DNA of 64,000 nt from a virus, in the IMG/VR virus record IMGVR_UViG_3300045988_183134, positions 96,001 through 160,000 of that record; one strand, 5' to 3'. A program made the position numbers and the translations under genes. Shown here piece by piece: positions 21,920 through 39,324 of the stretch (position 1 is its first letter; each line of letters starts with the position of its first letter). The notes below the pieces were generated by a model. The model was not told where the DNA came from and did not search any database. It was given only the letters and a program-made list of their open reading frames with translations.

Positions 21920-22600
21920 ATGCCTGACATGAGAATTTCATTGATGAAAGGGGAGACAATCCCCAGAGATATCAAGGGCCGCAGAATCATTTGCTGCTTT
22001 TGCAATGACAAGGGGACTTGGGATACCAAGACTCTTGAGAAATTTGCAAAGAGATTCCCGAAAGCAAAAGAGTGGTACTTACATAAGCTGCCAGAACAGC
22101 TTCGGTATCCCGGTCAGGTTCTATTCTGTCCGGGCAATAACGAGAACACGATTGTGGCAATTATGATTTGCAGTACTGAAACCGCCGACAAGTACGGCTC
22201 GAAAATTCAGTTCCCGTATCTGTACGGGTGTCTCTTGCAGGCGATGGTCAAGGCCAAACAAGCTGAGGCTTCCGTCATCGTATCAAAGCTCGGAACCGAT
22301 ATGGTCGAATGGCAGTGGAGAAAACTTATTTGGATTCTGAACCATGCGGCGGAAATGAATGAAGGGGTAACGGCAATCGCAGTTTCACCCTATGATTTGT
22401 CTGATGTGTTCGTTGAACCCAAAAAGAAGAAGTCCACTTCCAGAAAGACGAAAGCCAAAAAAGATTTGGAAGATTCCGAAGAGACCGATAGCGAAAAGGA
22501 CAACTGGGATGGTCCTCAAGAAAACGGCAGAGACCAACAGCTCAGCATGCCTGATGAAAAAGAAGACAAGAAATATAGTAAATACGATAATTTGCGCTAA
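21920..22600 (+). CDS. macro-domain-like protein with substituted Gly loops and an acidic/basic tail
   Basis: ORF 21800..22600. ATG 21920 lies 1 nt after the previous stop. RIICCFCNDKGTWDTKTLEKFAKRFPKAKEWY and VIVSKLGTDMVEWQW resemble the Macro_2-type pattern (hxNCxGxMGxGIA..fP.a...Y; IGcGlaGG.W), but the glycines are replaced. Confidence 0.35.
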   Translation: MPDMRISLMKGETIPRDIKGRRIICCFCNDKGTWDTKTLEKFAKRFPKAKEWYLHKLPEQLRYPGQVLFCPGNNENTIVAIMICSTETADKYGSKIQFPYLYGCLLQAMVKAKQAEASVIVSKLGTDMVEWQWRKLIWILNHAAEMNEGVTAIAVSPYDLSDVFVEPKKKKSTSRKTKAKKDLEDSEETDSEKDNWDGPQENGRDQQLSMPDEKEDKKYSKYDNLR

Positions 22601-22607
22601 CTTACGA

Positions 22608-22636
22608 GCTCCTGCAGCAATGCAGGGGCTTTTTTG
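22608..22636 (+). terminator. intrinsic terminator
   Basis: gctcctgca-gcaa-tgcaggggc followed by TTTTTT. Confidence 0.7.
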
Positions 22637-22686
22637 TTGTCTTTCTACAAAAATTTCATTTTTACAGTTTCGAGGCTCTTTTTTGC

Positions 22687-22714
22687 TTGCCTCACTGTGC
22701 GAATCAAAGATAAT
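22687..22714 (+). promoter_or_regulatory. TGTGCGAA-box promoter, copy h
   Basis: TTGCCT-cac-TGTGCGAA-tcaaa-GATAAT-gaagac, 58 nt upstream of ATG 22772. Confidence 0.55.
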
Positions 22715-22771
22715 GAAGACAACAGCCTAAAAGTGGCACTAAAAAGTAGCAATCAAGAAAGAGGTTATAAC

Positions 22772-23608
22772 ATGGCAACTAAGTTTTATCTTGCCGAAAT
22801 TCCGGATGATTTTCCGGCAACCAACGTCAAATTTGAAAATATGACCAAGCCACTGTTGGCGATTCCGGCCAAGATGGTTGATGGGAAGCCGATTACGATT
22901 GTCGGCTACATCAATGCTGGCCAGAAAAAATACAAAGCAAACGATTACGGCTTTGTTGAGTTCAATGACAACGGGGCCGATTTTGCGCAGTTCAAAGACG
23001 CCAATATGGATACTCGGTATTCCGTGAGAGAAAAGGTTTCCGGTGATATTCTCGGATACCTGCCGCTTGAAACCGGGGAACTCGTTGGCATTGTGCGTGA
23101 GAAGGAAAAACCGATTCTTCTTCTGATTATCGCGGTGATTGCTGCTCTCGTGCTGCTCGTTGCCCTTATCACTGCAAGCCTTTATAAAATGGTGAACAAG
23201 CCCCTTGATGGCAGCGGCAGCGATGCCAGCTCCGCAAGCAGCGAAATCGTGATTGCTGACGGCGAAGCGTATGACGGGACGATGGACAACGGCAAAACCG
23301 ATTCCGAGGAGATGCGATTCATCGAATTCCCGGCATTCACGACCATCTATGTGAGCCCTGACAGTACCGTGGACCTGGTGAACCCGGAAAGCAACCATGT
23401 CTACTTCAAATATACGATTCTTGAGAACGATGAAGTGCTCTATGAATCCGATTACATTGCCCCAGGCCAGAAATACGCCTGGCAGGCATCGGATTACATT
23501 ACCGGGGCAGGAGAGCACGCTGTGGTGTTCTCGGTATCTACTGTCGGTGTAGATGACCAACAGCCGCGCAATGGCGCTGAGTTTGCGGTCACGGCCGTTG
23601 TATCTTAA
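22772..23608 (+). CDS. bitopic membrane protein (central TM), unknown function
   Basis: ORF 22634..23608. ATG 22772 follows AAGAAAGAGG. TM helix is ILLLIIAVIAALVLLVALITASLY. Confidence 0.65.
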   Translation: MATKFYLAEIPDDFPATNVKFENMTKPLLAIPAKMVDGKPITIVGYINAGQKKYKANDYGFVEFNDNGADFAQFKDANMDTRYSVREKVSGDILGYLPLETGELVGIVREKEKPILLLIIAVIAALVLLVALITASLYKMVNKPLDGSGSDASSASSEIVIADGEAYDGTMDNGKTDSEEMRFIEFPAFTTIYVSPDSTVDLVNPESNHVYFKYTILENDEVLYESDYIAPGQKYAWQASDYITGAGEHAVVFSVSTVGVDDQQPRNGAEFAVTAVVS

Positions 23609-23746
23609 CTGGGCTGAATTGCGCGACAAGCGCATTTTGGTAAACTCGCAAGGGAGATAAATAGTAAAAGACAAGGGCTCGAATCAGCTGATGGCCTTGC
23701 ACATGGCTGATTTTGTGTCCGCAATCAACGAAGGAGGTTTCTGAAG

Positions 23747-24184
23747 ATGAAACTCGCCAAAGCTATGTCGATGGCCCTCGCTTGTGCGATGGCCGCGACT
23801 ATGTGTGCAACCTCCGCTTTTGCTGCAACTTCCGGCAGCACGAAGGTTAATGCCACTGTTACCCCGTCCTACACCCTGACCGTCCCTGAATCCATTACCC
23901 TGACCAACAACAAAGGCGGGAGTGGCACCTACACTGGTACGATTCCCGTCAACGTAAAGGGCGACATCGGTGAAGGTCAGTCCGTGACCGTTACTTCCAC
24001 TGCGCCTATCATGAAGTGCTCTGGTTCAAAGAACGTTACGGCTTCCTTTACCGGCACTCCTAAGAAGAGCTGGACCCGTATGGAGACTTCTGGTCAGGGC
24101 ACGACTGACAACTACGGTCTGTCTGCAGTCCTGACTCCTGGTGTTTGGGAAGGCACTGCTACCTTCTCCTGCGCTCTGGCATAA
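23747..24184 (+). CDS. secreted protein, paralog family member P1 (145 aa)
   Basis: RBS GAAGGAGG and signal peptide ...CATSAFA|AT. Family blocks are YTLTVPESITL, GTYTGTIPVNVKGD, SAVLTPGVWEGTATFSC. Confidence 0.8.
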   Translation: MKLAKAMSMALACAMAATMCATSAFAATSGSTKVNATVTPSYTLTVPESITLTNNKGGSGTYTGTIPVNVKGDIGEGQSVTVTSTAPIMKCSGSKNVTASFTGTPKKSWTRMETSGQGTTDNYGLSAVLTPGVWEGTATFSCALA

Positions 24185-24286
24185 TCAATCCCCATAACGC
24201 AACTGGGGTATCCCGCACAAAACCGAAAAGCGGTCGGCCTCACAAGCAGGCTGGCCGCCTTTTCTTTTGAATACGGAGGTTTTACC

Positions 24287-24730
24287 ATGAAACTGAAAAA
24301 ACTTACAGCAGCGGCATTGAGCTTTGTAATGATGCTTGGCATCAATACAGCCCCCGCATTTGCCGCTACGAGTAAATCTGCATCTACCGCGATTACCGCA
24401 GAGGTCGGGTCTGGGTATACAGTCACTGTCCCTGAAAAAATCGCGCTGACCAGCACGACTACAGGAACCGGCACGTATACGGGTACGATTGCTGTCAACA
24501 TCAAGGGAGATGTAGCAGCCAATCAAACGGTAACGGTTGCGGCAACTGCGCCTACGATGAAAGATACAGCAGGAAACAGCGTTGCTGCTACATTTACGTC
24601 TACCCCCAAGACAAAATGGTCACGGACTGACATGCAGGGCAATGGCACCACCAGTAACTATGTTGTTTCTGCATCCCTCACCCCCGGCAGCTGGACCGGA
24701 ACCGCGACCTTTACCTGTACTTTGGCTTAA
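24287..24730 (+). CDS. secreted protein, paralog family member P2 (147 aa)
   Basis: Signal peptide ...NTAPAFA|AT. Family blocks are YTVTVPEKIAL, GTYTGTIAVNIKGD, SASLTPGSWTGTATFTC. Confidence 0.8.
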   Translation: MKLKKLTAAALSFVMMLGINTAPAFAATSKSASTAITAEVGSGYTVTVPEKIALTSTTTGTGTYTGTIAVNIKGDVAANQTVTVAATAPTMKDTAGNSVAATFTSTPKTKWSRTDMQGNGTTSNYVVSASLTPGSWTGTATFTCTLA

Positions 24731-24769
24731 ATCTTGGAATCATGCCGCTATGCAGAGGAGGGCATTATT

Positions 24770-25204
24770 ATGAAGACATCAAAGAAAGTTCTGGCAGCCC
24801 TTCTGGCGATTTGTCTCAATACCGGAACTGCTCTGGCCGAAGTGGATAAGACTGCGACAACGGCGCTTGTTGCCGATGTGACTTCCGGGTATACGATTAC
24901 GGTGCCGGAAACTGTTGCATTGTCGAAGAGTACGGACGGGTCCGGTACTTATACGGGTATAATCCCGGTAAATCTCAAAGGCAGCGTTGGCAGTAACGAA
25001 AAAGTGACGGTGACTACCACAGTGACCGATATGACCGATGCGTCTGGGACTAAGGCTCCCGTGACATTCACGGCAAAACCGAAAACGGTCTGGTCATACT
25101 CCGACTTGCTGAATGGCGGAACTACAAGCAATTATGTGGTTTCCGCGACACTGACAGCAGGCAGCTGGAAGGGTACAGCTACATTTTCCTGCACGATGTC
25201 ATAA
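24770..25204 (+). CDS. secreted protein, paralog family member P3 (144 aa)
   Basis: ORF 24734..25204. ATG 24770 follows GAGGAGGG. Family blocks are YTITVPETVAL, GTYTGIIPVNLKGS, SATLTAGSWKGTATFSC. Confidence 0.8.
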   Translation: MKTSKKVLAALLAICLNTGTALAEVDKTATTALVADVTSGYTITVPETVALSKSTDGSGTYTGIIPVNLKGSVGSNEKVTVTTTVTDMTDASGTKAPVTFTAKPKTVWSYSDLLNGGTTSNYVVSATLTAGSWKGTATFSCTMS

Positions 25205-25232
25205 TGCCAAATTCGAAAGGATGTGAAAATCT

Positions 25233-27653
25233 GTGAACATCAAAAAAGCGGCTGCGAGTTTTCTATTTATGATTTTTGCCATGGTATGTAATGTGTCCAT
25301 GGCATTTGCAAGCTGGGGTGGCATGGGCTACAAAAACTGCGTGCTGTGCGGCGCATTGGTAACGCCTATGCCTACATATGGTGGCACACAGAAGTACACT
25401 GAATTCTACAACTGTGAAGAAGTTGAGGGCCTAACATCGAGCACAACTCAACGATATGCCCTGAAAAATATGTACGTTGTCAGCAACGCAGATGGCGTTA
25501 TCTGCACAAATTGCGTTGAACGTATTATCAGCGAACACAAAGGCGGCACGGGCGGTGAAGTTGATGAATCAGTGTACATCATTACCGTTCCCGAATCAGT
25601 GACACTAAGCAATGAAAACGGTGGCACTGGAGATTATGCTAACACCGTTTCTATCAAGGCAACGGGCAAACTGCTGACAAACCAGAAAGTATTTTTTAAT
25701 ACCTCTGCTCCGACCATGCACCGCGACGGCAGCACCGATGTTGTCTGCACCGCCACTGCTACCACTGCAACAGAATGGGACGCAACTGCTGTAAAAGGGA
25801 AAACTGCACAAACCGATTATTCCGTGACTGCGCACCTCACTCCAGGCGAATGGACCGGCAATATGGTGTTTTACGCTTCGGTAGGAGATACCTATACAGT
25901 TGAGGTAGGAGACAATTCTGTATTGCTTTCTCCTGCTTATGAGGATAAAACTCATATTGTATTTGAATCCGATAACCCCTCCGTGGCTTCCATTAGTTCG
26001 GACGGCCATATTATCGCTTCGGCAATCGGAACTGCGAACATCACGAAGACCGCATATGACAGTACCGGGACTCGCGTCATCTATTCGTCCAAATACACCA
26101 TCAATGTCACGGCGCAGATGCCGTTGATGGATGTGAGCCGTCTTGCTTCTGTATTGACGACTCTTTCCTCTCAGGGAAAAAACATCACCGTTATTTCGTT
26201 CGGCAATTATACAGTTCCGGGCAATGCAACGACCTATGACGTATCCGGCCAGGGTGACAAATCGATTGTCGCGTATGTTCCGACCACGATGTATGGCGGC
26301 TGGTGGTGGGGCGTTCAGAATGGCACAGAGCTTCGAGTGACAGATACGAACCGTGATATGGTGGCGTTTGCTTCCGGTAACAGCGTTTGCTTCAAAAGCG
26401 GTGCGTCTGACACTTCTACGGTTTTTGACAATATCAAGACCATTAACTTTGATGCAGTTGACACGACTCGCGTGACATCCGCTGCTTACGCATTCTATAA
26501 CATGAAGTCACTAACTACAATTACTGGACTCAGCCGTTGGGATACCAGTAAAATCACGACGATGAACAGCATGTTCAAGGGATGCACAGGACTTAAAAGC
26601 CTTGATTTCAGCAGCTTTAACACCAAAAATGTCACGGATTTCTCCAGTATGATGTATGGATGCACGGGTCTTTCGAAAATCACGGTCGCGGATACTTTTG
26701 CGACAGCTTATCTCCCGACTCCGGGCTTTTCCACGGGCTTTACCTACGTGAGCAGCAAGATGGGTCTTACCATTGCCGGAAACCCTTCCAGCGCTTTGAG
26801 CAGCTATAATTTCACTTCCGATAACCGTACCGTGACATACGATACTTCTACCGCATCTGATGATGAGTCCGATAATGAATTTCCGAACGAGGATTCCGAC
26901 AGCACCGTGGCACCTGCGCCGACAGCTTCGATGAACGTTTCAAACCTGGCGCAGGCAATGACGCAGCTCAAGGAATCCGGGACTGAAATCAAGGCGATTT
27001 CCTTTGGCGGCTATCAGGTCCCGGAATCGGCCAAAGTATTTGATGTCTCTGGAATCGGCTCCAGTACAATTCTGGCTTTTGTAAAAGAAGGCGAGAACCG
27101 GCTCTACGTCACGAATTCGGCTGGCGGAACACTTGTCTTTGGTGAGGGAAACAGCATTTCTTTTGATGAAAATGAGGCATTTGCCGACATTGAAAACATC
27201 GAGTATCAGAACGTTGATACTTCGCAGGTGACTTCTGCGGCATCTGCTTTTTCCGGGATGAAGAAGCTCACCAGCATTGGTGGATTAGAGAACTGGAACA
27301 TGTCGAACATCACTACGATGAACAGGATGTGTTATCAGTGTGAGGCTTTGCAGTCTATTGCCGGGATGGAGAAGTGGGATACCTCGAAAGTAACTGATAT
27401 GAGTGAAGCTTTTGCCGGTTGTCTTTCTCTCTCGGATGCTTCGCCGACAGATGGCTGGGATACCAGCAGCGTGACGAACAAAGAGAACATGTTTGCTGGC
27501 GCACTGTGCGAAAAAGCACCGGAGATAGCCAATGATACAGAGAACACTGATACTGATGCGGATTCGTCTGAGGGAAATTCCGAGCAAGCTGAAAGCAAAG
27601 CAAAAAACAAAGAGGGTCAACAACCCCCGCCTAAACCGGTTCACCGGTTATAG
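25233..27653 (+). CDS. large secreted surface protein: 4-Cys module, paralog-family domain (P4), Big_2-like domain, two BspA/DUF285-type LRR blocks
   Basis: GTG start with signal peptide ...CNVSMAFA. Cys motifs are NCVLCG...ICTNCVE. The P4 domain is YIITVPESVTL...HLTPGEWTGN. The Big_2-like part is NPSVASISSDGHIIASAIGTANIT. The LRR parts are W(D/N)TSK(I/V)T.M..MF..C..L repeats at about 26.4-26.7 and 27.2-27.5 kb. The last 9 codons and the stop lie in the IscB-element left-end hairpin. Confidence 0.8.
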   Translation: MNIKKAAASFLFMIFAMVCNVSMAFASWGGMGYKNCVLCGALVTPMPTYGGTQKYTEFYNCEEVEGLTSSTTQRYALKNMYVVSNADGVICTNCVERIISEHKGGTGGEVDESVYIITVPESVTLSNENGGTGDYANTVSIKATGKLLTNQKVFFNTSAPTMHRDGSTDVVCTATATTATEWDATAVKGKTAQTDYSVTAHLTPGEWTGNMVFYASVGDTYTVEVGDNSVLLSPAYEDKTHIVFESDNPSVASISSDGHIIASAIGTANITKTAYDSTGTRVIYSSKYTINVTAQMPLMDVSRLASVLTTLSSQGKNITVISFGNYTVPGNATTYDVSGQGDKSIVAYVPTTMYGGWWWGVQNGTELRVTDTNRDMVAFASGNSVCFKSGASDTSTVFDNIKTINFDAVDTTRVTSAAYAFYNMKSLTTITGLSRWDTSKITTMNSMFKGCTGLKSLDFSSFNTKNVTDFSSMMYGCTGLSKITVADTFATAYLPTPGFSTGFTYVSSKMGLTIAGNPSSALSSYNFTSDNRTVTYDTSTASDDESDNEFPNEDSDSTVAPAPTASMNVSNLAQAMTQLKESGTEIKAISFGGYQVPESAKVFDVSGIGSSTILAFVKEGENRLYVTNSAGGTLVFGEGNSISFDENEAFADIENIEYQNVDTSQVTSAASAFSGMKKLTSIGGLENWNMSNITTMNRMCYQCEALQSIAGMEKWDTSKVTDMSEAFAGCLSLSDASPTDGWDTSSVTNKENMFAGALCEKAPEIANDTENTDTDADSSEGNSEQAESKAKNKEGQQPPPKPVHRL

Positions 27654-27659
27654 ACGGGG

Positions 27660-27924
27660 CTTGCGGGGCAACCCGTAAGCCCGGTTGATTAGCCTAAGTC
27701 TGCTGCTCCAGCGGCAGGAAACTACGTTGTGTACTAATAATATAGGCACCTTACTCATGCTCCACAAGTGGTGAGCTCTGCGGATGTTTGTTAAAAATCT
27801 CTGAGGGTAGGAGACGTGCAAACATCATACCGAAAGGTAAAACAGTACAACAACATTGGCGATGTGGACCACGGGGCGCAAGCCCTGACTTATCGATTCA
27901 TTATTTACGAAAGGAGTACCTTGC
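27660..27924 (+). ncRNA. candidate IscB omega-RNA
   Basis: A 265-nt non-coding, GC-rich, hairpin-dense stretch lies between the left-end hairpin and the iscB ATG. Examples are gcggggcaacccgt, ccacggggcgcaagccctg and ctgctgctccagcggcag. This position is expected for IscB guide RNAs. Confidence 0.45.
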
Positions 27925-29295
27925 ATGAGCACTTGCGTTTGTGTTCTCAGCAACAGTGGTGAACGCTTAATGCCTACCATCCGTCTTGGCAAGGTACGCC
28001 GACTCTTGAAAGACGGAAAAGCAAAAATCGTCAAGCATCATCCTTTTACTATTCAACTGCTGTATGACAGCAAAACGAACACACAACCCATCGAAATCTG
28101 CGAAGACGTGGGCTACAACTACATCGGCATCAGCGTAAAAAGCGAATCCCACGAATATGTGTCTGCCCAGTATGATACATTACAGGATGAGAAAGCCTGC
28201 CACGACAGTTGTCGTAAGTTGCGCCGAACCCGCAGAAATAGACTGCGCTACCGTAAACCGCGCTTCGATAACCGCAAGCGCGGCGAAGGTTGGCTTGCAC
28301 CTTCTCTGGAACATAAGAAGCAGCTGAATATCCGTCTTATCGAACGGTATGTATCTGTAATCCCGATTACTCATGCAACGGTTGAAGTTGGTTCTTTTGA
28401 CACAATGTTGCTGCAAGCCATCCAGAAAGGCAAATCAAAACCGGAAGGTGTAGACTACCAGAAAGGTCCCCGCTACAACTTGGCAACTTTGCGTGAGGCA
28501 GTGTTCTACCGTGATAATTACACCTGCCAAGTTTTTGGACGCAAAATCGCGGATGGTGCCATTTTACATATGCACCACATGTTCTACTGGAAAGGAAGAC
28601 ACGGCTACCAGCTTGATGAGTTGGTTACAGCGTGTGAAAAATGCCACACGCCAGCAAATCATCAAAAAGGCGGCAAGCTCTTCGGTTTTGGCGAAGATAA
28701 AGAATTTGCCAATCTTTCAGGTGCAGCGTTTATGAACGCTGTTTGCTGGCAGATAGTAGATGCACTGCACGCCACATACGGTAAGGAATTTGTGACCATC
28801 ACTTATGGTGCGATGACAAAGGAAAAGCGAATCATTCTTGGCATAGAGAAAACCCACAACAACGATGCGTATGCAATGGGAGATTATCATCCGGTACATC
28901 GTTGCGTGTTTAGGCATTACCAAAAACGACGCAGAAACAATCGTGTGCTGGAAAAATTCTACGATGCCACTTATATCGACACCCGCACCGGTAACAAAGC
29001 AAAAGGTAAAGAACTTTTTAACGGCAGAATTAGCCGTAATCACAAAAAGAATTCTGAAGACCTGCACAAGTACCGCAGCAAAAAGGTGTCGAAGGGGCGT
29101 CGCTCTATAAGAAGACAGCGCTATGCAATTCAGCCATACGACACTGTGCGTCTCGAAAGTAAAACATACATTACAAGCGGGTGCCATAACAAAGGCACAA
29201 GACTTTTGATTCCTGCTAATGGGAAAAGTAAGTCCGTAGCAATTTCCAAAGTTCAAGTTGTTTGCCATGCGGGAGCATGGATACAAATCATTTAA
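27925..29295 (+). CDS. iscB: IscB (RuvC-HNH RNA-guided nuclease), 456 aa, apparently intact
   Basis: AAGGAG RBS. The PLMP-type N-terminus is SNSGERLMPTIRLGKVRRLLKDGKA. Split RuvC motifs are ICEDVGYNYIGISV, ATVEVGSFD and THNNDAYAMG. The HNH-like insert is YTCQVFG...HMHHMFYW...ACEKCH. Confidence 0.8.
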   Translation: MSTCVCVLSNSGERLMPTIRLGKVRRLLKDGKAKIVKHHPFTIQLLYDSKTNTQPIEICEDVGYNYIGISVKSESHEYVSAQYDTLQDEKACHDSCRKLRRTRRNRLRYRKPRFDNRKRGEGWLAPSLEHKKQLNIRLIERYVSVIPITHATVEVGSFDTMLLQAIQKGKSKPEGVDYQKGPRYNLATLREAVFYRDNYTCQVFGRKIADGAILHMHHMFYWKGRHGYQLDELVTACEKCHTPANHQKGGKLFGFGEDKEFANLSGAAFMNAVCWQIVDALHATYGKEFVTITYGAMTKEKRIILGIEKTHNNDAYAMGDYHPVHRCVFRHYQKRRRNNRVLEKFYDATYIDTRTGNKAKGKELFNGRISRNHKKNSEDLHKYRSKKVSKGRRSIRRQRYAIQPYDTVRLESKTYITSGCHNKGTRLLIPANGKSKSVAISKVQVVCHAGAWIQII

Positions 29296-29410
29296 ATGTT
29301 GAAAGGAGGTAAGCAGGAAATGCTGTATCTTAGTCTTTTCTAAGAAGCGCATTCCTCCCCACCTAAGCCTTACGGCTATAGATGGGGTGTCCTGCTCCAT
29401 AATTATGAAC

Positions 29411-30103
29411 ATGAAGGCTATCAAGCGCTTTGCTATGCTTTTGGCAGTGCTGTCTCCTTTTCTTTTGAATGTGTCGTTCGGATTTGCCGATACCGCTACA
29501 CGGACATGTTCGGTCTGTGGGCAGAAATTCACTGTGACAACCCCGGCCGCTGATGACGCCAAAACATTCGAGGCGTACAACAAGGTAAACTCGATTAAAG
29601 GCGTTGAGTCGGATAAGAGCGCTACTTATACCGCAATTACGGATGCAAATGTCTATGCAACGACCATTAACGGAAAGCCTCTGTGCTCGAATTGTCTGAG
29701 TACGATGGGCGCTGCTACTTCTACCGGTAAAGGATTGCCGAAAACGGCTTCCACTCAGCTGCTTGCGAGCGCAACGGCGGTCTATACGATTACGGTTCCC
29801 GAAACTGTTAAGCTGACAGGCGTTGACAGTGGCCCTGGCTCATATACGGCTGACATCACCATGACTTTGAAAGGTGATGTCGAGGAGAATGCGGTGATTG
29901 TGGTATCTGTGGACGGTGGAACCATGACCAACACTGCGGGCAAAACCGCTGCTGTCACGGTATCCAATCGGACCAAAAGCGAGTGGTCCCGAGCAGATTT
30001 GCTGAACGATGGAACGAGTGCAACTTGCAAAGTCTCTGCGGAGCTTGACCCCGGGCACTGGACCGGCACGGCAACATTCAGCTGCGAGAAACAGTATAAG
30101 TGA
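29411..30103 (+). CDS. secreted protein: 4-Cys module plus paralog-family domain (P5)
   Basis: ORF 29387..30103. ATG 29411 gives signal peptide MKAIKRFAMLLAVLSPFLLNVSFGFA. Cys motifs are TCSVCG...LCSNCL. Family blocks are YTITVPETVKL...ELDPGHWTGTATFSC. Confidence 0.75.
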   Translation: MKAIKRFAMLLAVLSPFLLNVSFGFADTATRTCSVCGQKFTVTTPAADDAKTFEAYNKVNSIKGVESDKSATYTAITDANVYATTINGKPLCSNCLSTMGAATSTGKGLPKTASTQLLASATAVYTITVPETVKLTGVDSGPGSYTADITMTLKGDVEENAVIVVSVDGGTMTNTAGKTAAVTVSNRTKSEWSRADLLNDGTSATCKVSAELDPGHWTGTATFSCEKQYK

Positions 30104-30130
30104 TGAATTTCTTGGAAAGGAGGGAACTGT

Positions 30131-30655
30131 ATGCGTTTGAAAGCTGTAGGGGCAGAAATTCTTGCCGCGCTGACGCTTGCCTGTCCAGTCTTAGCGTTCT
30201 CTGAACCAATTGGTTCGGATGACGCTGTCATAGATGCCGATGATACGATTGCGGCAGATACACCCGACTCGGATTCTAATGACACCGCCTGGCTGAGCGC
30301 TTCCAAGGATACTTCAACGCAGGTCACAGCGGAAGTGGACAGCTTTTATACATTGACCGTTCCGGAAGAAATCACGCTGAATGGTTCGGATGGTACTGGC
30401 ATCCAGACTGGCACAATTCCGGTCACTTTAATGGGGGATATCCCTCTCAAGGGAACTGTTCAAGTCAAAACCACTGCTACGCCTCTGCAGGCGAAAGGCT
30501 CTGTAGATGTGCCTATGACCATCGCAACACCAAAGGTTGAATGGAATCGCACTGAGATGCTCGGAGACGGAACGAGTTCAGACTATTCCGTAAGCGCAGT
30601 TCTTGCTCCTGGCGACTGGACTGGCACAGTGACGTTTGAATGCTTGGTGCAATAA
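30131..30655 (+). CDS. secreted protein, paralog family member P6 (174 aa) with an acidic N-terminal extension
   Basis: RBS GGAAAGGAGGG. Family blocks are YTLTVPEEITL, GTIPVTLMGD, SAVLAPGDWTGTVTFEC. Confidence 0.8.
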   Translation: MRLKAVGAEILAALTLACPVLAFSEPIGSDDAVIDADDTIAADTPDSDSNDTAWLSASKDTSTQVTAEVDSFYTLTVPEEITLNGSDGTGIQTGTIPVTLMGDIPLKGTVQVKTTATPLQAKGSVDVPMTIATPKVEWNRTEMLGDGTSSDYSVSAVLAPGDWTGTVTFECLVQ

Positions 30656-30672
30656 ATGCCAACAAATCTTAT

Positions 30673-30703
30673 ACCGCTTGCCCTTTTGGGTAGGCGGCTT
30701 TTT
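30673..30703. terminator. intrinsic terminator
   Basis: ccgcttgccc-tttt-gggtaggcgg followed by TTTTT. Confidence 0.6.
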
Positions 30704-30772
30704 GCTAGGTATTTGTTGTGCGTTCTGAACACGGCAGCTATGGCCTATCTTGTTTCCGGCATAAAAAGCAGG

Positions 30773-30834
30773 CACAATATATTGTGTTTTGGTATTGCAA
30801 TATACCATATATTGTGGTACAATATATCTACTGG
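30773..30834. promoter_or_regulatory. operator/promoter cluster: 14-bp perfect palindrome plus face-to-face extended -10 elements
   Basis: CACAATATATTGTG at 30773-30786. The reverse complement of 30799-30807 is TGGTATATT (minus strand). TGGTACAAT lies at 30815-30823 (plus strand). CAATATA/TATATTG half-sites are repeated. Confidence 0.45.
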
Positions 30835-30979
30835 CTCAAATGATAGCAAAGAACCTAAAGTTTGAGCATTTTCGTGTATGGCTATGAGACCGCTTCCTTC
30901 TACTTGAAGATAATATGAAATCATGTCAGCGGTTTCGCTCTCCGTCACGGCTCGAGAACATAACAATACGGCTATATAT

Positions 30980-31029
30980 CCGCTTCCTTCATTTCTAGAA
31001 GAACAAGGAAGTCGGCTCGCATTTTTTGT
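30980..31029 (+). terminator. leader terminator 1 upstream of 31144
   Basis: ccgcttcctt...aaggaagtcgg hairpin followed by cattttttg. Confidence 0.4.
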
Positions 31030-31088
31030 GCTGCTGACTTCAACACGTTAGCGGATATGCTTTCCGTATCTATTACGTGTCTCATCCA

Positions 31089-31121
31089 CCCGTGTCGAGT
31101 TTTTCTCGGCGCGGGATTTTT
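31089..31121 (+). terminator. leader terminator 2, immediately before the RBS of 31144
   Basis: cccgtgtcgag-ttttt-ctcggcgcggg-a-ttttt, then AGGAGG. Confidence 0.5.
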
Positions 31122-31143
31122 GTTTTGTTAGGAGGTCATTTGA

Positions 31144-33342
31144 ATGCTGACTGTTTATGATTTTAACCGCGTCACGTTTGCACATCATCGTGGCATCGTA
31201 CCACCCATGCCCGCACAAGAAGGGAAGAAAGCGGTGGAGAAACGCTATGTCTGTTCAGCGAACATGAAATTGATGGAATACGGCTATATTATGGCGCGAG
31301 ACCTCTTTGATGCCTGCTGCAAGGCCGAATACAATGATTTCCTCAAGACCTGGTCTGCGCTGTATGACTGTGTCACGGAGGATGGCAAGGCAATTTCTCA
31401 GACTTCTCCCATCTGGCCGAATTTCCCGGACGATGCGATGAAAGCCGACCTTGTGGACCTGTATGTTGTCAACTTCCTCAATTATCTGACCTGCGGCGAA
31501 TGGCAGCCAGACTTTGACCCAACAAAATTTTGCCCGGCACTGGACCGCAGCCATCTTCTTGCTGTGAAACAGATTCCGGCGTGTGATGAGGAGGAAATCT
31601 ACCGCTATTCCGTACAGAGCATTACCGGGCATTCTCCTCTGTCTCCTGACGAGGCGTCCTGCGTTTTCGATACTTTGATGCATGATATTGATTTCACATC
31701 TGAGCTGATGGACCGCATGAAACCCAAGCATATTCCATGCAAGGAAAATCTTGCTCTGTATGTGTCTCGCATTGTCTCTCGTCCCGAATGGCGGGAACAG
31801 GCATGCTTCCGGGATTTCAAGAGCTCTACCGATGTGCTGCGCCTGGCCGCAGCAATGAGCGACCAGGATGTGAGTCTTTCGAAAGCCCCGAAATTCCGGA
31901 ACTTTAAGCGCGGTGAACGTCGTCAGCTGCTGGAACTTCTGGAACACACTGATAAGAACGAGGGCTTTGCATTGCATCCCGAAGAGTTCAAGCGATTGGG
32001 CGAACGCCTGCATCCGGGTGATTACTCTTATGTCTTCAAGGAAGATTATGAGATTTTTACGAAGATTCGCAATGGTGTCAAGATTGAAACCTACAATTCC
32101 AAGCTCCAAGAACTTATGAAGAAACCGGTCAATGCTGAACTGCTTTCCGCTCACCTGATGATGCGGCCCGGTATGTTTGCCCGAAACCTGGACTTTGCAC
32201 TGCGCAACTGCTCCAATGAACAGCAGATGGAAAATGTTCTGTTCCGATTCATCTCGGTATGCAAGAGTATTGAACCGCGTGTCCTGGTCCAGCTCATCAA
32301 CCATTTTCGGAATCGCAACAATCCTGTGCATTTGGCAACCGGCAAGGCAAACGGCGCTGCCAGCAAAGCTCTGGAACGGGACATTGAACCTTTGTCTGAG
32401 GATATCTGCAAACGTGTGGCACGCGATATCTTTAACCAGCTGTGGCAGGTCCTTCGCGCAGAGGACACCGAACCGAAGAGCGTGTACATCGACCCGGATT
32501 GCCATTGCAATAAGCTGATTTTTCCGGATAATCCCCGTCAGGTCACTTCCGCCGTACGTGCTGCAGCCTGCGGCTCTCGCACGAATCTGTCGGACGGAAA
32601 TGTGCTCCGTGCATTCCTTTACTGGAAGGGAAACGATGGCCCTGACCTGTGGAATGGCATCGACCTGGACCTCTCGGTTGTGTTCTACGGAGAGGAAAAA
32701 GCAAAGTTCGTGTACTACGCGAATCCCAAGGACGAAACACTTGGCGCAATCCACTCCGGCGACCGCCGCTGCAGCGGTAAGAATGGTGCCGTTGAGTATG
32801 TAGATTTCGATATCAAGAAGTGCTTTCAGAATGGGTTCCGTTATGCCGCCCTCACTGTAAAATCCTACTCTGGGGAGAAGTTCTCTGAGATGGAGAACGC
32901 TTTCTGCGGCGTAATGGTTCGGGATGGCAAGACGGGTGAGCAGTTTGAACCTGCGACTGTCAAGGACCGCTTTGCTCTCACTACGGATTCTGACCAGCTC
33001 GTTATGGTCGTTATAGACCTCATGACCCGTGAAGTCATTACGGTGGATAAGAGCGTGGCTCAGTTCCGTTTGGCGTGCCGGAATGTTGTGACAGACTATG
33101 CACCTACAGTAGCAGCCTGCACCTACGCGATGCAGCTGAAGAGCCTGTCTATCAAGGAAATGCTCGGTATGCGCTATGCACAGTTCCTGAAAAGCGACGA
33201 CTGGAAACACGCAAGTGTTATCGTATCTGATGAACCTGAAAAGTTCAAGGTGACGAATAAGGATACTCCTGCGCCGCGCATTGTTAGCCCCTATGACATT
33301 CCGGGCATTTATGACCTGATTTTTGGCAAGGAAAATCAATAA
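31144..33342 (+). CDS. 732-aa protein with a C-terminal TerD-like domain; N-terminal ~480 aa unknown
   Basis: GIDLDLSVVFYGEEKAKFVYYANPKDETLGAIHSGDRRCSGKNGAVEYVDFDI matches the TerD-type pattern (DLDxS...F.N...HSGD...E.i.vdl). Confidence 0.6.
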   Translation: MLTVYDFNRVTFAHHRGIVPPMPAQEGKKAVEKRYVCSANMKLMEYGYIMARDLFDACCKAEYNDFLKTWSALYDCVTEDGKAISQTSPIWPNFPDDAMKADLVDLYVVNFLNYLTCGEWQPDFDPTKFCPALDRSHLLAVKQIPACDEEEIYRYSVQSITGHSPLSPDEASCVFDTLMHDIDFTSELMDRMKPKHIPCKENLALYVSRIVSRPEWREQACFRDFKSSTDVLRLAAAMSDQDVSLSKAPKFRNFKRGERRQLLELLEHTDKNEGFALHPEEFKRLGERLHPGDYSYVFKEDYEIFTKIRNGVKIETYNSKLQELMKKPVNAELLSAHLMMRPGMFARNLDFALRNCSNEQQMENVLFRFISVCKSIEPRVLVQLINHFRNRNNPVHLATGKANGAASKALERDIEPLSEDICKRVARDIFNQLWQVLRAEDTEPKSVYIDPDCHCNKLIFPDNPRQVTSAVRAAACGSRTNLSDGNVLRAFLYWKGNDGPDLWNGIDLDLSVVFYGEEKAKFVYYANPKDETLGAIHSGDRRCSGKNGAVEYVDFDIKKCFQNGFRYAALTVKSYSGEKFSEMENAFCGVMVRDGKTGEQFEPATVKDRFALTTDSDQLVMVVIDLMTREVITVDKSVAQFRLACRNVVTDYAPTVAACTYAMQLKSLSIKEMLGMRYAQFLKSDDWKHASVIVSDEPEKFKVTNKDTPAPRIVSPYDIPGIYDLIFGKENQ

Positions 33343-33908: not shown

Positions 33909-34208
33909 AAAATCAGTGGCTCAGAGCAGTAAGCCCCAGAGCTCCCTGATAAGGGCGAACTCATGGTGCATATCTGCGTCATCAAGTCATCACATGGTAG
34001 ACTGACGGGCCTTGCGGTGTTGCAAGAATGGTCAGGCGAGGGAAGCGATGAATCCCTCATTGCTGCCAAGTACATCGTGTTTTGATGCAGTCAGCGTCGA
34101 GAGGACGCGGATATGCATGGCTTGACTTTTGACCCGATGCATGCAGGAGCAAAGGAATCAAAAGAGATGGCCTAGTTCGAATCCACTATTTGAAAGGAGA
34201 TTACCCCA

Positions 34209-35795
34209 ATGAAATGTTACAAGCGCGTTGCAAGCGCTGTGATGGGTATGGCAATGGCCGCCAGCTGCATGGCTCCTATCACCGCTTACGCAATGGAAGA
34301 CACCAAACAGCCCACTGACAATACTGCTATTGCCAACCATCCCAATAACGAGACCATGCTGCACAGCACTCCCGTTTACCGCATCGGCGCCAAATCCTTC
34401 TACAAGGTGAACGACGACGGTTCCGTTGTCTACGCCGACCAGGATGCCGAAGGCTACACTGCAGTTCCTGCCGCTTATATTGCAGGCAGCCAGTATAACG
34501 ATGGCGAAGAGTACGGCGTTTATACCACCAAAAAGGCTGATGGCACCTTCCAGATGCATTACGTCAAGATTTCTGACTGCCAGCAGACTCAGGGTGGCGT
34601 GAACTGGAACCACGGCACTGCTGATGAAGCTAAGGTTTCTGACGATACCAAGGCTGAGGGCACCGACACCGCCACCAACGAAGACCCGACGATGTCCACC
34701 CAGTTCTACATCTACCTGGACAACGACACCGAGATTCCTCCCGAGACTCCTCCGACCGAGGAAGAGCATCCTGGCGTGAAGACCGATGACGGCCGCGTTG
34801 AGTACGATATCACCGTTGCTACCGTGAACCATGTCAACATGAAGGCTACTGTTCCTCTGTACGTCTGCATGTACGGTTTCCGTTCCACCGGCAACGTTGT
34901 TACCCCGACCAAGGATGCTTACCAGCTGCGCAACTACTCCACCATCGACAAGAACAGCCGCACCTACATTGCCGATATCGTGAAGGTTACCCATTACAGC
35001 CGCATCTACGATGCCGACCACTCCAACGACGAGCTGTTCTCCATCGCTTACGATGCCACCAGCAAGACCTACACCTACTGGTACAGCGACCCCTCCACCA
35101 CTCAGGGTTGGCAGCAGCCTGCTATCTACAAGACCCTGGCTGATGAGCATATCAACGCTTCCGGTGAGTGCTACGTCATCTACATCGATGGCGAGTGGGA
35201 CTTCAAGGCCGCTGGTACTCTGACCGGCGACGAGCTGCGCCAGACTGTGAAGGCTATCGACCAGAACCATCAGCTGTCTCAGGACTTCATCATCGGTGAT
35301 GGCGATACTCAGTGCAACTTCGGCAAGGCTTTCGCCGTTGGCGACAGCAAGACCGACAACTCCAAGCGTGAAGGTCTGGCCATCAAGGTTTCTGAGCTGC
35401 AGGCTGAGCCCGCAACCTGGCGTGTTGTGCCTATGAGCAACAGCGCCTTGAAGCGCGGCGAAATCGCTATGAGCATTGCTCCTGCTTCTGCAATGTACAA
35501 CGCTTCTGCTATCGACCTGTCCACCTGCTCCGCTCCTCTGGACATCACCGAGAACGGCTGGTTCATCGCTGGTGCTGAAAAGGCCAAGGTTGCTCAGGAT
35601 GGCGCTGGCACCGATGCTGTCAAGCATGACGATGCTCCGGCCCTGCCGCTGATTACCACCGCCAAGATTGCTGGTTCCAACGTCAACGACGCTGGCTGCA
35701 CTCCTGTCGTTCGCGTGACCTACAGCATCATCCCGATGTTCGAGACTGGCGATACTCAGACTGCTACCGCAGGCGGCGTCTCCAGCAACCGCTGA
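34209..35795 (+). CDS. secreted 528-aa protein homologous to the last module of the giant protein
   Basis: RBS AAAGGAG and signal peptide ...MAPITAYA|ME. KATVPLYVCMYGFRSTGNVV...LRNYSTI and LKRGEIAMSIA match ATVPLYVCMYGNTTSGEV...ITNYSTV and LRRGELYMRLR at 63.66-63.93 kb. Confidence 0.8.
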   Translation: MKCYKRVASAVMGMAMAASCMAPITAYAMEDTKQPTDNTAIANHPNNETMLHSTPVYRIGAKSFYKVNDDGSVVYADQDAEGYTAVPAAYIAGSQYNDGEEYGVYTTKKADGTFQMHYVKISDCQQTQGGVNWNHGTADEAKVSDDTKAEGTDTATNEDPTMSTQFYIYLDNDTEIPPETPPTEEEHPGVKTDDGRVEYDITVATVNHVNMKATVPLYVCMYGFRSTGNVVTPTKDAYQLRNYSTIDKNSRTYIADIVKVTHYSRIYDADHSNDELFSIAYDATSKTYTYWYSDPSTTQGWQQPAIYKTLADEHINASGECYVIYIDGEWDFKAAGTLTGDELRQTVKAIDQNHQLSQDFIIGDGDTQCNFGKAFAVGDSKTDNSKREGLAIKVSELQAEPATWRVVPMSNSALKRGEIAMSIAPASAMYNASAIDLSTCSAPLDITENGWFIAGAEKAKVAQDGAGTDAVKHDDAPALPLITTAKIAGSNVNDAGCTPVVRVTYSIIPMFETGDTQTATAGGVSSNR

Positions 35796-35924
35796 TAGAG
35801 TCTCCGGACCTAATATAAAGCAAGCCCAAATGTAAGGGTTGGCTGTCGAGTGACCTGCCGCTCGGCGGCCAACTTTTGTTAATAACAGCTCAGTCAAGTA
35901 ATTGACGGAAAGGAATTGAATATC

Positions 35925-36491
35925 ATGGCAACTACAATGACGACCCCTGAAAAGAATTCGAAGAAGAGTGGTAACAAGCTCCTGCATCGGACCGTTACGA
36001 TTTGTGTGATTCTCCTGCTTCTCCTGTGCGTGGGTCTGTTCTTCTGGCACAATAAAAATGCTACTGCTTCCGACAACCGCCTGGAAGATTCGGTCGCTGC
36101 ACAGCTTGGCCAGCTCGAAGGCAAGAGCGAGGCAGAGATTCAGGAAGAACTGAACCGCGTCGTGGAAGAGGGTACAATGGCCATCTCCATCAACGTCAAT
36201 CCGGTGTTTGATTCCGGCGATTCTGAAGGCACTCTCGAAATCGAGAATGCTCCCGGTAATAAATACGCTCAGGTTGTGAGCATCACCCTGGATGATAGCG
36301 GCAAGGAAATCTACAACAGTGGACTTATCCAGCCTAACTATCACATCCAGACAGATAAGCTGTCCGAGGCCCTGGCTGCCGGTTCTTATGACTGCACCGC
36401 TACCTTCACGGCTTATGATACCACCGATGCCGAGAATCCTATCGAGGTTGGCACTGCTGCTGCCAAGATTACGATTTCTGTGCTGTCTTAA
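35925..36491 (+). CDS. N-terminally anchored protein (188 aa)
   Basis: ORF 35916..36491, with ATG at 35925. TM helix is TVTICVILLLLLCVGLFFW. Confidence 0.6.
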   Translation: MATTMTTPEKNSKKSGNKLLHRTVTICVILLLLLCVGLFFWHNKNATASDNRLEDSVAAQLGQLEGKSEAEIQEELNRVVEEGTMAISINVNPVFDSGDSEGTLEIENAPGNKYAQVVSITLDDSGKEIYNSGLIQPNYHIQTDKLSEALAAGSYDCTATFTAYDTTDAENPIEVGTAAAKITISVLS

Positions 36492-36497
36492 CGATTC

Positions 36498-36535
36498 GCC
36501 CCGGTGCAGACTTCGGTTTGCCCCGGGGCTTTTTT
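36498..36535 (+). terminator. intrinsic terminator
   Basis: gccccgg...ccggggc followed by TTTTTT. Confidence 0.6.
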
Positions 36536-36567
36536 GGAACTTGTGATGCTGCAAAGGAGGCATTCCC

Positions 36568-36954
36568 GTGAAACAGCTTGCGAAAGTTCTCGCGTCTTTC
36601 TCGCTGGCCGCAACGATGTGTTTGGGCGTTGGCTTTGCAGCCGATTCTCCGCATCCTGGTGAGCATGGCACGGTTGACAAGGCTATGGTCTCTGAAGAAA
36701 CCGATAAGGCTTACGATGAGAAGCCGAACATGGGTACAAAATTCAATTTGTATCTTGCGCCTGACATCCCCGAAACGGTTCCTCCTATTAAAAAGGATGT
36801 TCCTAAGATGGGCGATACCGGCATTCCTCAGGAATCCCTGCTCCAGGCCCTGCTGGTAGCGGGTGGCTGCTATCTTGTGAGCGATGGCGTGGCTGTTGCT
36901 TGCAAGGGTGGACGCCGTAAACCTAAGAAGACTGCGGAACTGAAAAACGCATAA
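36568..36954 (+). CDS. secreted 128-aa protein with a C-terminal anchor-like tail (VPKMGDTG, then a hydrophobic stretch, then KGGRRKPKK)
   Basis: GTG start follows GGAGG. Signal peptide is ...CLGVGFA|AD. NMGTKFNLYLAPDIPETVPP matches TMSTQFYIYLDNDTEIPPETPP of 34209..35795. Confidence 0.65.
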   Translation: MKQLAKVLASFSLAATMCLGVGFAADSPHPGEHGTVDKAMVSEETDKAYDEKPNMGTKFNLYLAPDIPETVPPIKKDVPKMGDTGIPQESLLQALLVAGGCYLVSDGVAVACKGGRRKPKKTAELKNA

Positions 36955-38395: not shown

Positions 38396-38439
38396 AAAAA
38401 TAGACAATATCGTAATTTGCGCCGTTGTGGGGTGTACAA

Positions 38440-39324
38440 ATGCATACAGATAACAAAACAAAACTGACCTGGTTCGGGATTCTTCGATTGATAGTAGGCG
38501 GAATCTTTCGGCTTATCAGCATCGTTGCACTTCTGGCTGTGCTTGGAATCAGCTATCTTCTGTTTCAAAATGTAAAGCAGACAAAGGAAACGCAGGACCT
38601 CAATGTTCAGCTGGTTGAGATGCGTCAGGAAGCAGAAACCGAAGAAGACAATACGGACTGGTCTAAGGGTATGTTGGACGTGAACCCGGATTATAAAGGC
38701 TGGCTCACGATTTACGGAACACAAATCTCCGAACCAGTCGTGCAGGGGGAAACAAACGAAACTTATCTGCGCACCAACATCAATGGCGAACACGCTGAAG
38801 CGGGGACACTGTTCCTCGATGAAACCACTGATTTGACTCAGGATGGCAACCTTATCATTTACGGCCATAAAATGAACGACGGAACCATGTTCGGAACTCT
38901 TGATAAGTTTGAGGATGAAGAGTTTTTTGATAATAATGGAACAGTTTGCTGGGAAAGTGAGAAGGGCAAAGAGTACTATCAGATTTTTGCGCTCTTGGTT
39001 TTACCCGGATACAGTACAGCCCCTGATTTTATCGACCTTCAAGCCTGGAACAACGTTCTGGACGAAGAGCAAACTGCCGACATGCTCAACACGATTGCAG
39101 ACCGAGCTTCTATCTTTAGAGGGGAATCCTTTAATCTTGAAAAGGACAAGTACATCTTCCTGGTGACTTGTGATTACAGCATCAACAACGGCCGCCTTGT
39201 TCTAGTGGGCAGGCGGCTCAGCAAGAAGAGCGAGACGGAAGACACCACAGAGGAAAGTACCGATAACGCGGAAGAGGTTATATCGGAAGACGGGGCAGAG
39301 ACGTCATCAGAACCAGAGGTGTGA
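38440..39324 (+). CDS. srtB: class B sortase with an acidic C-terminal tail
   Basis: N-terminal TM helix. Motifs are LTIYGTQISEPVVQG, IIYGHKMNDGTMFGTL, IFLVTCDYS and GRLVLVGRRL. Confidence 0.8.
   Translation: MHTDNKTKLTWFGILRLIVGGIFRLISIVALLAVLGISYLLFQNVKQTKETQDLNVQLVEMRQEAETEEDNTDWSKGMLDVNPDYKGWLTIYGTQISEPVVQGETNETYLRTNINGEHAEAGTLFLDETTDLTQDGNLIIYGHKMNDGTMFGTLDKFEDEEFFDNNGTVCWESEKGKEYYQIFALLVLPGYSTAPDFIDLQAWNNVLDEEQTADMLNTIADRASIFRGESFNLEKDKYIFLVTCDYSINNGRLVLVGRRLSKKSETEDTTEESTDNAEEVISEDGAETSSEPEV

Follow-up and report, generated by a model that had tools for sequence, protein, structure and literature searches.

What is the role of a short array of genes for secreted proteins that are all built on one domain and carry no known sorting signal? 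We addressed this question for six paralogous genes, P1–P6, and for the membrane-protein gene that precedes them, in a stretch of 64,000 nucleotides (positions 96,001 to 160,000 of IMG/VR virus record IMGVR_UViG_3300045988_183134), which is referred to as the window. An original prediction had described the array as a plasmid-encoded surface structure with diversified subunits, such as an adhesin, a pilus-like fibre or a mating-aggregation apparatus. Its surface-structure part is favoured by pilin-fold matches, by the leucine-rich repeat (LRR) and DUF285 cargo of P4 and by the membrane partner, while its plasmid and mating part is not. The operon, at 22772–30655, looks like a candidate new adhesin-display route of Gram-positive gut bacteria. 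Tentatively, and at somewhat less than even chances, we read it as a multi-protein surface structure that displays an adhesin, namely a short strand-complemented fibre with an LRR-adhesin tip and a membrane-protein base.

Six secreted paralogs with a shared domain

The six copies of the domain were all recovered at the predicted positions as open reading frames (ORFs) on the + strand (Table 1). They form an array that is not contiguous as had been supposed, because an IscB/HEARO element splits P4 from P5. A hidden Markov model (HMM) of the domain, run against the stop-to-stop ORFs of the window, found P1–P6 only, with E-values from 3.8e-26 (P4) to 5.3e-56 (P2) that far exceed chance expectation. 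An alignment of the six proteins extends over some 120 residues, 17 of its columns are invariant, and it contains the blocks by which they had first been recognized, Y(T/I)(L/I/V)TVPE, G.YTG and SA.L(T/A)PG.W.GT..F.C. Pairwise identity of the domains is 26–56%, and they are therefore old paralogs rather than recent duplicates. According to the alignment, the chains stop 1–5 residues past the last beta-strand. Intergenic gaps in the operon measure 27–102 nt, and P1, P2, P3 and P6 have GGAGG ribosome-binding sites.

Moreover, each gene encodes its own signal peptide, as proposed, with a K/R-rich N-terminus, a hydrophobic core and an AxA-type site. The signal peptides were called from the sequence, and the predicted cleavage sites include AFA↓A, ALA↓E, AFA↓S, GFA↓D and AFS↓E. 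Judged from these sequence features, P1–P6 look like Sec-type secreted proteins. The absence of an LPXTG-type signal, also predicted, holds for P1–P6 and for every one of 175 family members, on which no other anchor was seen either. A cysteine near the C-terminus is indeed present in five of the six copies (P4 is without it), but the emphasis laid on it does not extend to the family. Over 120 family representatives this column holds Cys in 62, Ile in 24 and Val in 10, which points to a buried hydrophobic strand position and not to an obligatory disulfide. We rejected an inter-subunit disulfide, since roughly one in three family members has Ile or Val at this position.

Size and distribution of the family

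As had been suspected, the domain is not part of any named family. In P1–P6 it is covered by no model of Pfam, NCBIfam or PHROG, Pfam gave no match to it in 72 full-length relatives, and no family was accepted for it in 35 domain sequences searched against Pfam at E≤10. PHROG yielded only phrog_6709 for P2 (E 0.0057), which is not significant. Two profiles searched against the PDB sequences matched nothing except a non-significant Bap repeat, and no pilin was found. Literature searches returned no description of the domain. One candidate, DUF4402 (PF14352), was rejected, since its matches in 12 of the 35 sequences are weak and below the gathering score (best E 0.0088; 10–16 bits against a cut-off of 25.2) and out of register, with the protein N-terminus aligned to profile positions 42–95.

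A profile search of 1.84 billion representatives returned 1,044 proteins at E≤1e-3, of which 196 also pass E≤1e-10. The family comprises about 1,000 clusters at 50% identity, and single 90% clusters hold 700–1,800 metagenomic members. All members found are metagenomic (JGI, ENA, Logan), their only label being "hypothetical protein", and a scan of 185,579 species genomes with patterns from the close alignment revealed no relative.

We retrieved 175 proteins, among which the domain HMM recovers 173 relatives. These can be divided into three types: stand-alone proteins of less than 200 amino acids (aa; 73 proteins), longer proteins with the domain at the N-terminus (83) and proteins with the domain at the C-terminus (17). 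No protein with two copies in tandem occurs among the 173. The cargo domains are of the adhesin type (BspA-LRR/DUF285), with LRR_5 in 22, DUF285 in 11, LRR_8 in 9 and Flg_new in 2 of the 72 members scanned with Pfam. Some database proteins, such as P0194, P0068 and P0184, are chimeric or frameshifted gene calls, for example the N-terminus of the membrane protein joined to a P6-like domain. Such calls were left out of the alignments; alternatively, they could be real rearrangements of the operon.

Predicted fold and N-terminal strand

We modelled P2 as a monomer with AlphaFold2 from an alignment of 23 sequences, and compared the model with the PDB by Foldseek. The original prediction had assigned no fold, and the closest one proved to be that of chaperone-usher pilins. 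The model is a beta-sandwich with a predicted local distance difference test score (pLDDT) above 90 for residues ~44–147, and the mature N-terminal segment (from residue ~25 or ~27 to ~43) is unplaced, with pLDDT 50–71 and no strand assigned. The five hits at E≤1e-3 are all chains of CfaB, the major pilin of CFA/I, the best with E 2.6e-4 and a template modelling (TM) score of 0.52. They are followed by CS17, CfaE, FimG, CsuE, PapK/PapG and YhlD, and the pilin-type matches span E 2.6e-4 to 0.17. All these top matches, from CfaB to YhlD, are donor-strand-exchange subunits of chaperone-usher systems. With moderate confidence, the predicted fold of the domain is closest to the incomplete immunoglobulin-like (Ig-like) pilins of chaperone-usher pili, and the modelled relationship to CfaB is one of fold level only.

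The N-terminal segment is an amphipathic strand with the consensus V-x-A-x-V-x-S-x-Y and is as well conserved as the core strands; in P6 an acidic low-complexity extension precedes it. It occupies the position of the CfaB donor strand VEKNITVTASVDPVI, and an example from the present family is STKVNATVTPSY. The engineered fusions 3f84 and 3f85, which are donor-strand-complemented, confirm both the sequence and the role of the CfaB strand. In the family, 40 of 52 stand-alone members of less than 200 aa possess the N-terminal strand, the rest being 11 fragments or chimeras and one intermediate. It is missing in 11 of 81 long adhesin-type proteins, including P4 and all P4 orthologs. In these strand-less proteins either a module with four cysteines (4-Cys module) or the signal-peptide cleavage site stands immediately before YxITVP, and in every P4 ortholog the HMM match begins at profile position 15. 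Tip adhesins of chaperone-usher pili are also without a donor strand.

The membrane partner and a minimal module

A survey of the domain's neighbourhoods revealed a constant partner. In the window and in each of the 11 loci that bear an array, the distant L007 among them, the first small-subunit gene is immediately preceded by a single copy of a gene for a bitopic membrane protein (Table 1). Its AlphaFold2 model consists of a beta-rich cytoplasmic N-domain, a transmembrane helix (~115–141) and a seven-strand Ig-like ectodomain (~190–277; pLDDT 81–92). The protein carries the conserved motif SSEI(V/T)IADG..DG..DNG, and its ectodomain is better conserved than the subunits. The homologs form 50 clusters, all metagenomic, with no Pfam domain in any of them save the HTH-type domains of the chimeric fragment P0204; the window protein itself has no Pfam match. 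Foldseek found nothing at E≤1e-3 for the model. Nevertheless, 23 of the top 50 matches are periplasmic chaperones of chaperone-usher systems (Caf1M, FaeE, PapD, SfaE, FimC, CsuC, DraB and YadV), at E 0.04–0.1, a weak resemblance of the modelled Ig-like domain to PapD-family chaperones that is suggestive but not significant.

A minimal three-gene module occurs in distant human-gut contigs (L025–L027, Table 1). It encodes a 161-aa protein with a transmembrane helix and an Ig-like domain, homologous to the window membrane protein (E 1e-27), an LRR_5 protein with the domain at its N-terminus, and a 145-aa small subunit that is only about 31% identical to the query domain. Behind the module come genes for TPM_phosphatase and LemA and a TnpB. 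In L007, the membrane-protein gene and the array are immediately preceded by a classical sortase-pilus cluster (1969–7823), which encodes a DUF7601/Flg_new_2 protein, a Peptidase_S26 SipA-like protein, an FctA-type pilin and a sortase.

P4 cargo and 4-Cys modules

The large subunit P4 combines the domain with adhesin-type repeats. Pfam identified DUF285 (4.6e-32), LRR_5 (1e-6) and Big_2 (3e-5) in it, and NCBIfam the PARCEL repeat (1.3e-23). The repeats also match three PHROGs of unknown function. This is a point for the view that P1–P6 belong to a large prophage or phage-plasmid and bind receptors or associate with the tail; further points are a weak Phage_tube_2 match for P3 (E 0.008) and the phage-like look of L025–L027, with many small ORFs and a methyltransferase. 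We regard this view as very improbable, for INPHARED gave no match by DNA or protein, the P2 fold had no match at E≤1e-3 among the viral structures of BFVD, the domain itself is without a significant PHROG match, and a Sec signal peptide on every copy is atypical of virion proteins.

The homologous 4-Cys modules that had been noticed in P4 and P5 were confirmed, each with CxxC, about 55 residues, a second CxxC and conserved Tyr residues. A CxxC...CxxC pair ahead of the domain is present in 21 proteins (19 of the family plus P4 and P5 of the window), two of which cannot be aligned to the module, leaving about 19 true members. DUF4428 is matched by five of 16 modules, with a best E of 1.1e-5, and the window's own modules are below the threshold (E 0.12–0.22). 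The other weak matches are all to zinc-knuckle, zinc-ribbon or treble-clef families. Judging by these profile matches, the module resembles a DUF4428-like zinc knuckle or ribbon.

Selection on the subunits and P1 as candidate major subunit

Comparison across loci separates P1 from the other paralogs. Its identity is 83–84%, against 50–69% for the others, and its nonsynonymous substitution rate (dN), 0.12, compares with about 0.32 for P2. The ratio of nonsynonymous to synonymous rates (dN/dS) of P1, about 0.1, shows strong purifying selection; in the comparisons of non-P1 paralogs dS is saturated. The hairpin between P1 and P2 is the strongest terminator-like site in 22300–31200 (RNA fold z-score −2.6) and recurs at the same place in L010 (4951–4979). 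It may be an attenuator that sets the ratio of P1 to the minor subunits. Since P1 is first in the array, evolves most slowly and is followed by a terminator hairpin, we take it as the candidate major subunit. A first, conserved gene trailed by an attenuator is the classical major-subunit signature in pap/fim-type operons.

These data also bear on the explanation that the six secreted paralogs act independently and without assembly, for example as variable surface or secreted antigens or as decoys diversifying under pressure from host or phage. The range of 26–56% identity and the roughly threefold faster evolution of the non-P1 copies speak for it. However, loci with as little as about 30% identity still share the gene order and the membrane partner, purifying selection on P1 is strong, the N-terminal strand has been maintained, and the genes keep an operon layout with short gaps. 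We hold independent paralogs to be improbable.

A possible strand-complemented fibre or anchoring platform

In the reading that we prefer, the exported subunits would join non-covalently by beta-strand complementation, the N-terminal strand (V-x-A-x-V-x-S-x-Y) of one subunit completing the sandwich of the next. The resulting short fibre or stalk would consist mostly of P1, with P2, P3, P5 and P6 as minor or adaptor subunits. P4, having no donor strand, could only accept one and would hence stand at the distal end, where it would present the LRR adhesin. The membrane protein would tether or nucleate the structure at the cell surface, and assembly would proceed without usher or sortase.

Several points weigh against such a fibre. 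Strand exchange rests on one monomer model and on sequence patterns. The Foldseek support is moderate (TM 0.52, E 2.6e-4) and Ig-like sandwiches are common; when the domain profile was aligned to CfaB with hhalign, the probability was about 1%, and no pilin family of Pfam is matched. The chaperone-like matches of the membrane protein are non-significant, as given above. In addition, 16 of the 17 proteins with a C-terminal copy of the domain retain the N-terminal strand internally, and so does the large LRR protein of the minimal module (L026). Some long members stand alone (L022–L024), with no small subunit or membrane partner on their short contigs. The solitary members, the C-terminal copies and the strand-bearing L026 protein fit an anchoring or handle domain equally well.

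Such a domain is at the centre of the main alternative, a non-filamentous platform like that of WxL clusters. Here the domain would be a non-covalent anchor or handle, and the membrane protein would bind subunits one to one or in a small complex, possibly by strand insertion, with no polymer. The trio of a minimal WxL cluster, a small protein, a large host-binding protein and a membrane-anchored Ig-like protein (PMC9772566, PMC10599100), is mirrored in the window and in L025–L027. The large WxL protein ElrA also has LRRs, the shared domain is the sole possible anchor of the solitary long members, and it is found N- or C-terminally on many unrelated cargo proteins. On the other hand, there are no WxL motifs, and no match to PF13731, DUF916 or DUF3324 appears even at E≤10. 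The domain is N-terminal in the large proteins, whereas WxL domains invariably stand at the C-terminus, and the anchoring transmembrane helix is N-terminal or central instead of C-terminal. The four to five small paralogs without cargo, among which one is strongly conserved and has a terminator behind it, find a simpler explanation as structural subunits, and peptidoglycan binding is without support. We consider a WxL-like platform possible but doubtful.

The fibre and the WxL-like platform agree on a strand-complemented surface complex with an LRR adhesin and differ on polymerisation. A bolder version of the fibre reading goes further. It proposes a donor-strand-exchange pilus independent of usher and sortase, with a tethered PapD-like protein as chaperone, platform or anchor and a strand-less LRR tip. 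The system would then be the counterpart of chaperone-usher pili in monoderms, or a relative of theirs by descent, borne by mobile elements and widespread in metagenomes of the human gut. In this full form we judge it unlikely.

Host, element and neighbouring genes

The topoisomerase III of the window is 77% identical to one in a human-gut Clostridiales metagenome-assembled genome (HRGM_Genome_2451), and related contigs, up to 113–171 kb, come from gut metagenomes. The host is most likely an uncultured, monoderm gut Clostridiales. With genes for topoisomerase III, PcfJ-like, TnpB, IscB, HipA-like, AbiEii-like and sortase proteins, the region looks like a mobile element. Neither PLSDB nor INPHARED gave a DNA or protein match, so that the term plasmid-encoded finds no backing in PLSDB. 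Likewise, a mating-aggregation apparatus is not supported, as no relaxase or type IV secretion system (T4SS) family was found in the 35 window ORFs scanned with Pfam, which are most but not all of the large ones.

This weighs on a further explanation, in which the operon is a plasmid-borne conjugation accessory (a mating-pair adhesin or pilus, or an aggregation substance) acting with the sortases and the giant protein. In its favour, surface adhesins are often among the products of Gram-positive conjugative elements, the region looks mobile, and a sortase gene lies within 6–8 kb of the array in several loci. Nonetheless, VirB4/VirD4-type ATPases are missing from the scanned ORFs along with relaxase and other T4SS families, no plasmid in PLSDB matches, no family member has a sortase signal, and the domain system also occurs in unrelated contexts (L023, beside secA, and L025–L027). 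Such an accessory therefore seems hardly probable.

The links once drawn to sortase and to a giant protein are not sustained either. The sortase gene is about 8 kb away and, as noted, the family has no sorting signals; LPXTG-type substrates were not detected in the window, and the C-terminus of the giant + strand protein lies outside it, which leaves this protein as a possible sortase substrate. The giant protein is the product of a + strand gene that runs off the window end, and the minus-strand ORFs taken for it (57044–61384, 61595–62977 and 63023–63961) were rejected as antisense shadows with V/I/A/L/R-rich composition. The genes of the element are nearly devoid of TTA, CTA and TCA codons (19, 19 and 43 of 10,714), with the consequence that in-phase antisense frames stay open and many long spurious ORFs appear on the minus strand; further examples are 5665–7800, 22739–23674, 31255–33339 and 34158–36680.

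Just downstream of the array in all close loci are two genes, one for a 732-aa protein with a TerD-like segment and a match to the MXAN_6230/SCO0854 RING-domain family (E 5.8e-70, below the family cut-off), and one for a 528-aa protein of no family. Three adjacent genes farther on resemble toxin-antitoxin or defence genes and encode an HTH_3 regulator, a HipA-like kinase and an AAA_21 (AbiEii-type) ATPase.

The 1.79-kb IscB (OMEGA)/HEARO element between P4 and P5 is not part of the system. Six near-identical metagenomic contigs (L001–L006) are without it, and there P5 starts 13 nt after P4. By BLAST against these contigs the flanks of the element are 99–100% identical, and 72 nt of ancestral sequence have been replaced, including the last ~22 codons of P4 with the stop codon and the region of the P5 ribosome-binding site. 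Intact P4 orthologs have 814–815 aa, and the 3' end of the window's P4 is altered by the insertion at 27616; no Shine-Dalgarno sequence precedes P5 in the window. With the end of P4 cut off and P5 deprived of its ribosome-binding site, the distal genes of this window may function poorly. A decayed IscB copy (a 102-aa RRXRR fragment) is present elsewhere in L002 and L003, the window has a TnpB with OrfB_IS605 and Cas12f1-like TNB domains, and in L001 a further TnpB (8023–9168) has entered the gap that separates the membrane-protein gene from P1. IS200/605-type elements appear to have targeted the operon region repeatedly.

Table 1. Positions of the operon genes, the inserted element and neighbouring features.
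Feature	Position	Strand	Description
TnpB	2612–3721	+	OrfB_IS605 and Cas12f1-like TNB
Membrane protein	22772–23608	+	bitopic, 278 aa; candidate base, anchor or assembly factor
P1	23747–24184	+	small subunit, 145 aa; signal peptide, N-terminal strand, domain; HMM E 1.6e-50
Hairpin	24230–24258	+	intrinsic-terminator-like, between P1 and P2; 11 bp, 8 GC, T-run
P2	24287–24730	+	small subunit, 147 aa; HMM E 5.3e-56
P3	24770–25204	+	small subunit, 144 aa; HMM E 7.5e-49
P4	25233–27653	+	large subunit, 806 aa; HMM E 3.8e-26
P4 parts			signal peptide; 4-Cys module ~33–110; domain 114–217, no N-terminal strand; Big_2 230–278; two DUF285/PARCEL/BspA-type LRR blocks
IscB (OMEGA)/HEARO element	27616–29404	+	1.79 kb, between P4 and P5
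HEARO/omega RNA	27616–27872	+	Rfam RF02033, 95.5 bits against a gathering score of 83
IscB ORF	27925–29295	+	Pfam RRXRR 2.2e-45 and HNH
P5	29411–30103	+	230 aa; signal peptide, 4-Cys module, N-terminal strand, domain; HMM E 6.7e-37
P6	30131–30655	+	small subunit, 174 aa; HMM E 2e-47
Hairpin	30674–30697	+	terminator-like, operon end
732-aa protein	31144–33342	+	match to MXAN_6230/SCO0854 RING-domain family
528-aa protein	34209–35795	+	no family
Sortase	38425–39324	+	E 2.8e-12
HTH_3, HipA-like, AAA_21 genes	43502–47235	+	adjacent
Giant protein	55283–64000	+	signal peptide, at least 2,906 aa, G/T/D/S-rich, one YDG domain; runs off window end
Minimal three-gene module	~7823–10438 of L025–L027		distant human-gut contigs (up to 411–551 kb)

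Significance

The domain, the membrane partner and the extracytoplasmic 4-Cys module are three undescribed families, so far found only in uncultured gut Firmicutes, and all three are worth curating. The operon is compact. Gut Clostridia of the Lachnospiraceae and Oscillospiraceae type are abundant, yet little is known of how they display adhesins. An anchor cannot be recognised in many of their BspA-LRR/DUF285 surface proteins, and for these the domain is a candidate anchoring and assembly principle. If the subunits do form a donor-strand-exchange polymer, this would be a further class of Gram-positive pili after the sortase-assembled, type IV, Ena/F-Ena and TasA ones. The pilin fold of chaperone-usher systems would then also occur beyond diderm bacteria, a point that bears on the origin of these systems.

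Comparison with known systems

Judged by sequence families, the system belongs to none of the WxL, chaperone-usher, sortase-pilus and TasA families, and it shares features with each of them. With the WxL (Csc) clusters of Lactobacillales and Listeria it has a three-part logic in common, consisting of small domain-only proteins, a large adhesin protein and a membrane-anchored Ig-like protein, and in both the domain proteins need no LPXTG signal. The mechanism proposed for WxL includes predicted strand insertion beside the mobile N-terminal strand of the domain (PMC10599100, PMC9772566). In contrast, the family alignments have no W-x-L motifs at conserved positions, and PF13731 is absent at E≤1 in P1–P6, at E≤0.01 in the 72 relatives and at E≤10 in the 35 domain sequences. 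The domain measures about 120 aa here and about 180 aa in WxL proteins, and in large proteins it is N-terminal (P4 and 83 of the 173 relatives) and C-terminal in only 17. A WxLIP combines DUF916, DUF3324 and a C-terminal transmembrane helix, whereas the partner here has a single Ig-like ectodomain and an N-terminal or central helix. Moreover, the host belongs to the Clostridia and not to the Bacilli, and the predicted fold best matches chaperone-usher pilins.

The best structural match of the domain is CFA/I, a class 5 (alternate) chaperone-usher pilus with the major pilin CfaB, the tip adhesin CfaE, the chaperone CfaA and the usher CfaC. As in CFA/I, the subunits of about 145 aa would have an N-terminal amphipathic strand, then an Ig-like sandwich ending at the last strand. 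A large adhesin subunit without donor strand, and one major with several minor subunits, would complete the likeness, these roles being our assignment. The differences are clear. No match to PapD_N/C or Usher of Pfam was found in the scanned window ORFs, there is no soluble two-domain chaperone, and an apparently monoderm host cannot have an outer-membrane usher. The adhesin cargo lies C-terminal to the pilin-like domain, the reverse of the order in CfaE and FimH.

Chaperone-free donor-strand polymers are known from single-membrane organisms, including TasA/BsaA (10.1101/2024.11.04.621531), the archaeal bundling pili AbpA (PMC9245690), the cannulae CanA (10.1101/2024.12.30.630787) and others of a group that includes the Sulfolobus threads (PMC9715654). 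Their subunits are Sec-secreted, the N-terminal strand completes the sandwich of the neighbour and no usher is needed; the present subunits are likened to them from the predicted monomer. TasA-type systems also use a membrane or wall accessory protein (TapA) as anchor or nucleator, to which the membrane partner may be likened. However, no Peptidase_M73/TasA match of Pfam was obtained in P1–P6, the 72 relatives or the 35 domain sequences, and no Peptidase_S26/SipW-type gene is present in the scanned window ORFs, that of L007 belonging to the adjacent sortase-pilus cluster. TasA-type proteins are not among the top Foldseek matches (CanA has rank 32, with probability 0.18), and the subunits here are smaller, with 4–6 paralogs and an LRR adhesin.

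Sortase-assembled Gram-positive pili likewise have several pilin-like paralogs and an adhesin in one operon, with a sortase gene nearby. No CnaA, CnaB or FctA domain was found in the scanned family members, and LPXTG is lacking in all 175. Taken together, and as far as profiles and models can tell, the architecture of the system is most like that of a WxL cluster, while the predicted structure of its subunits is most like that of a chaperone-usher or TasA-type polymer.

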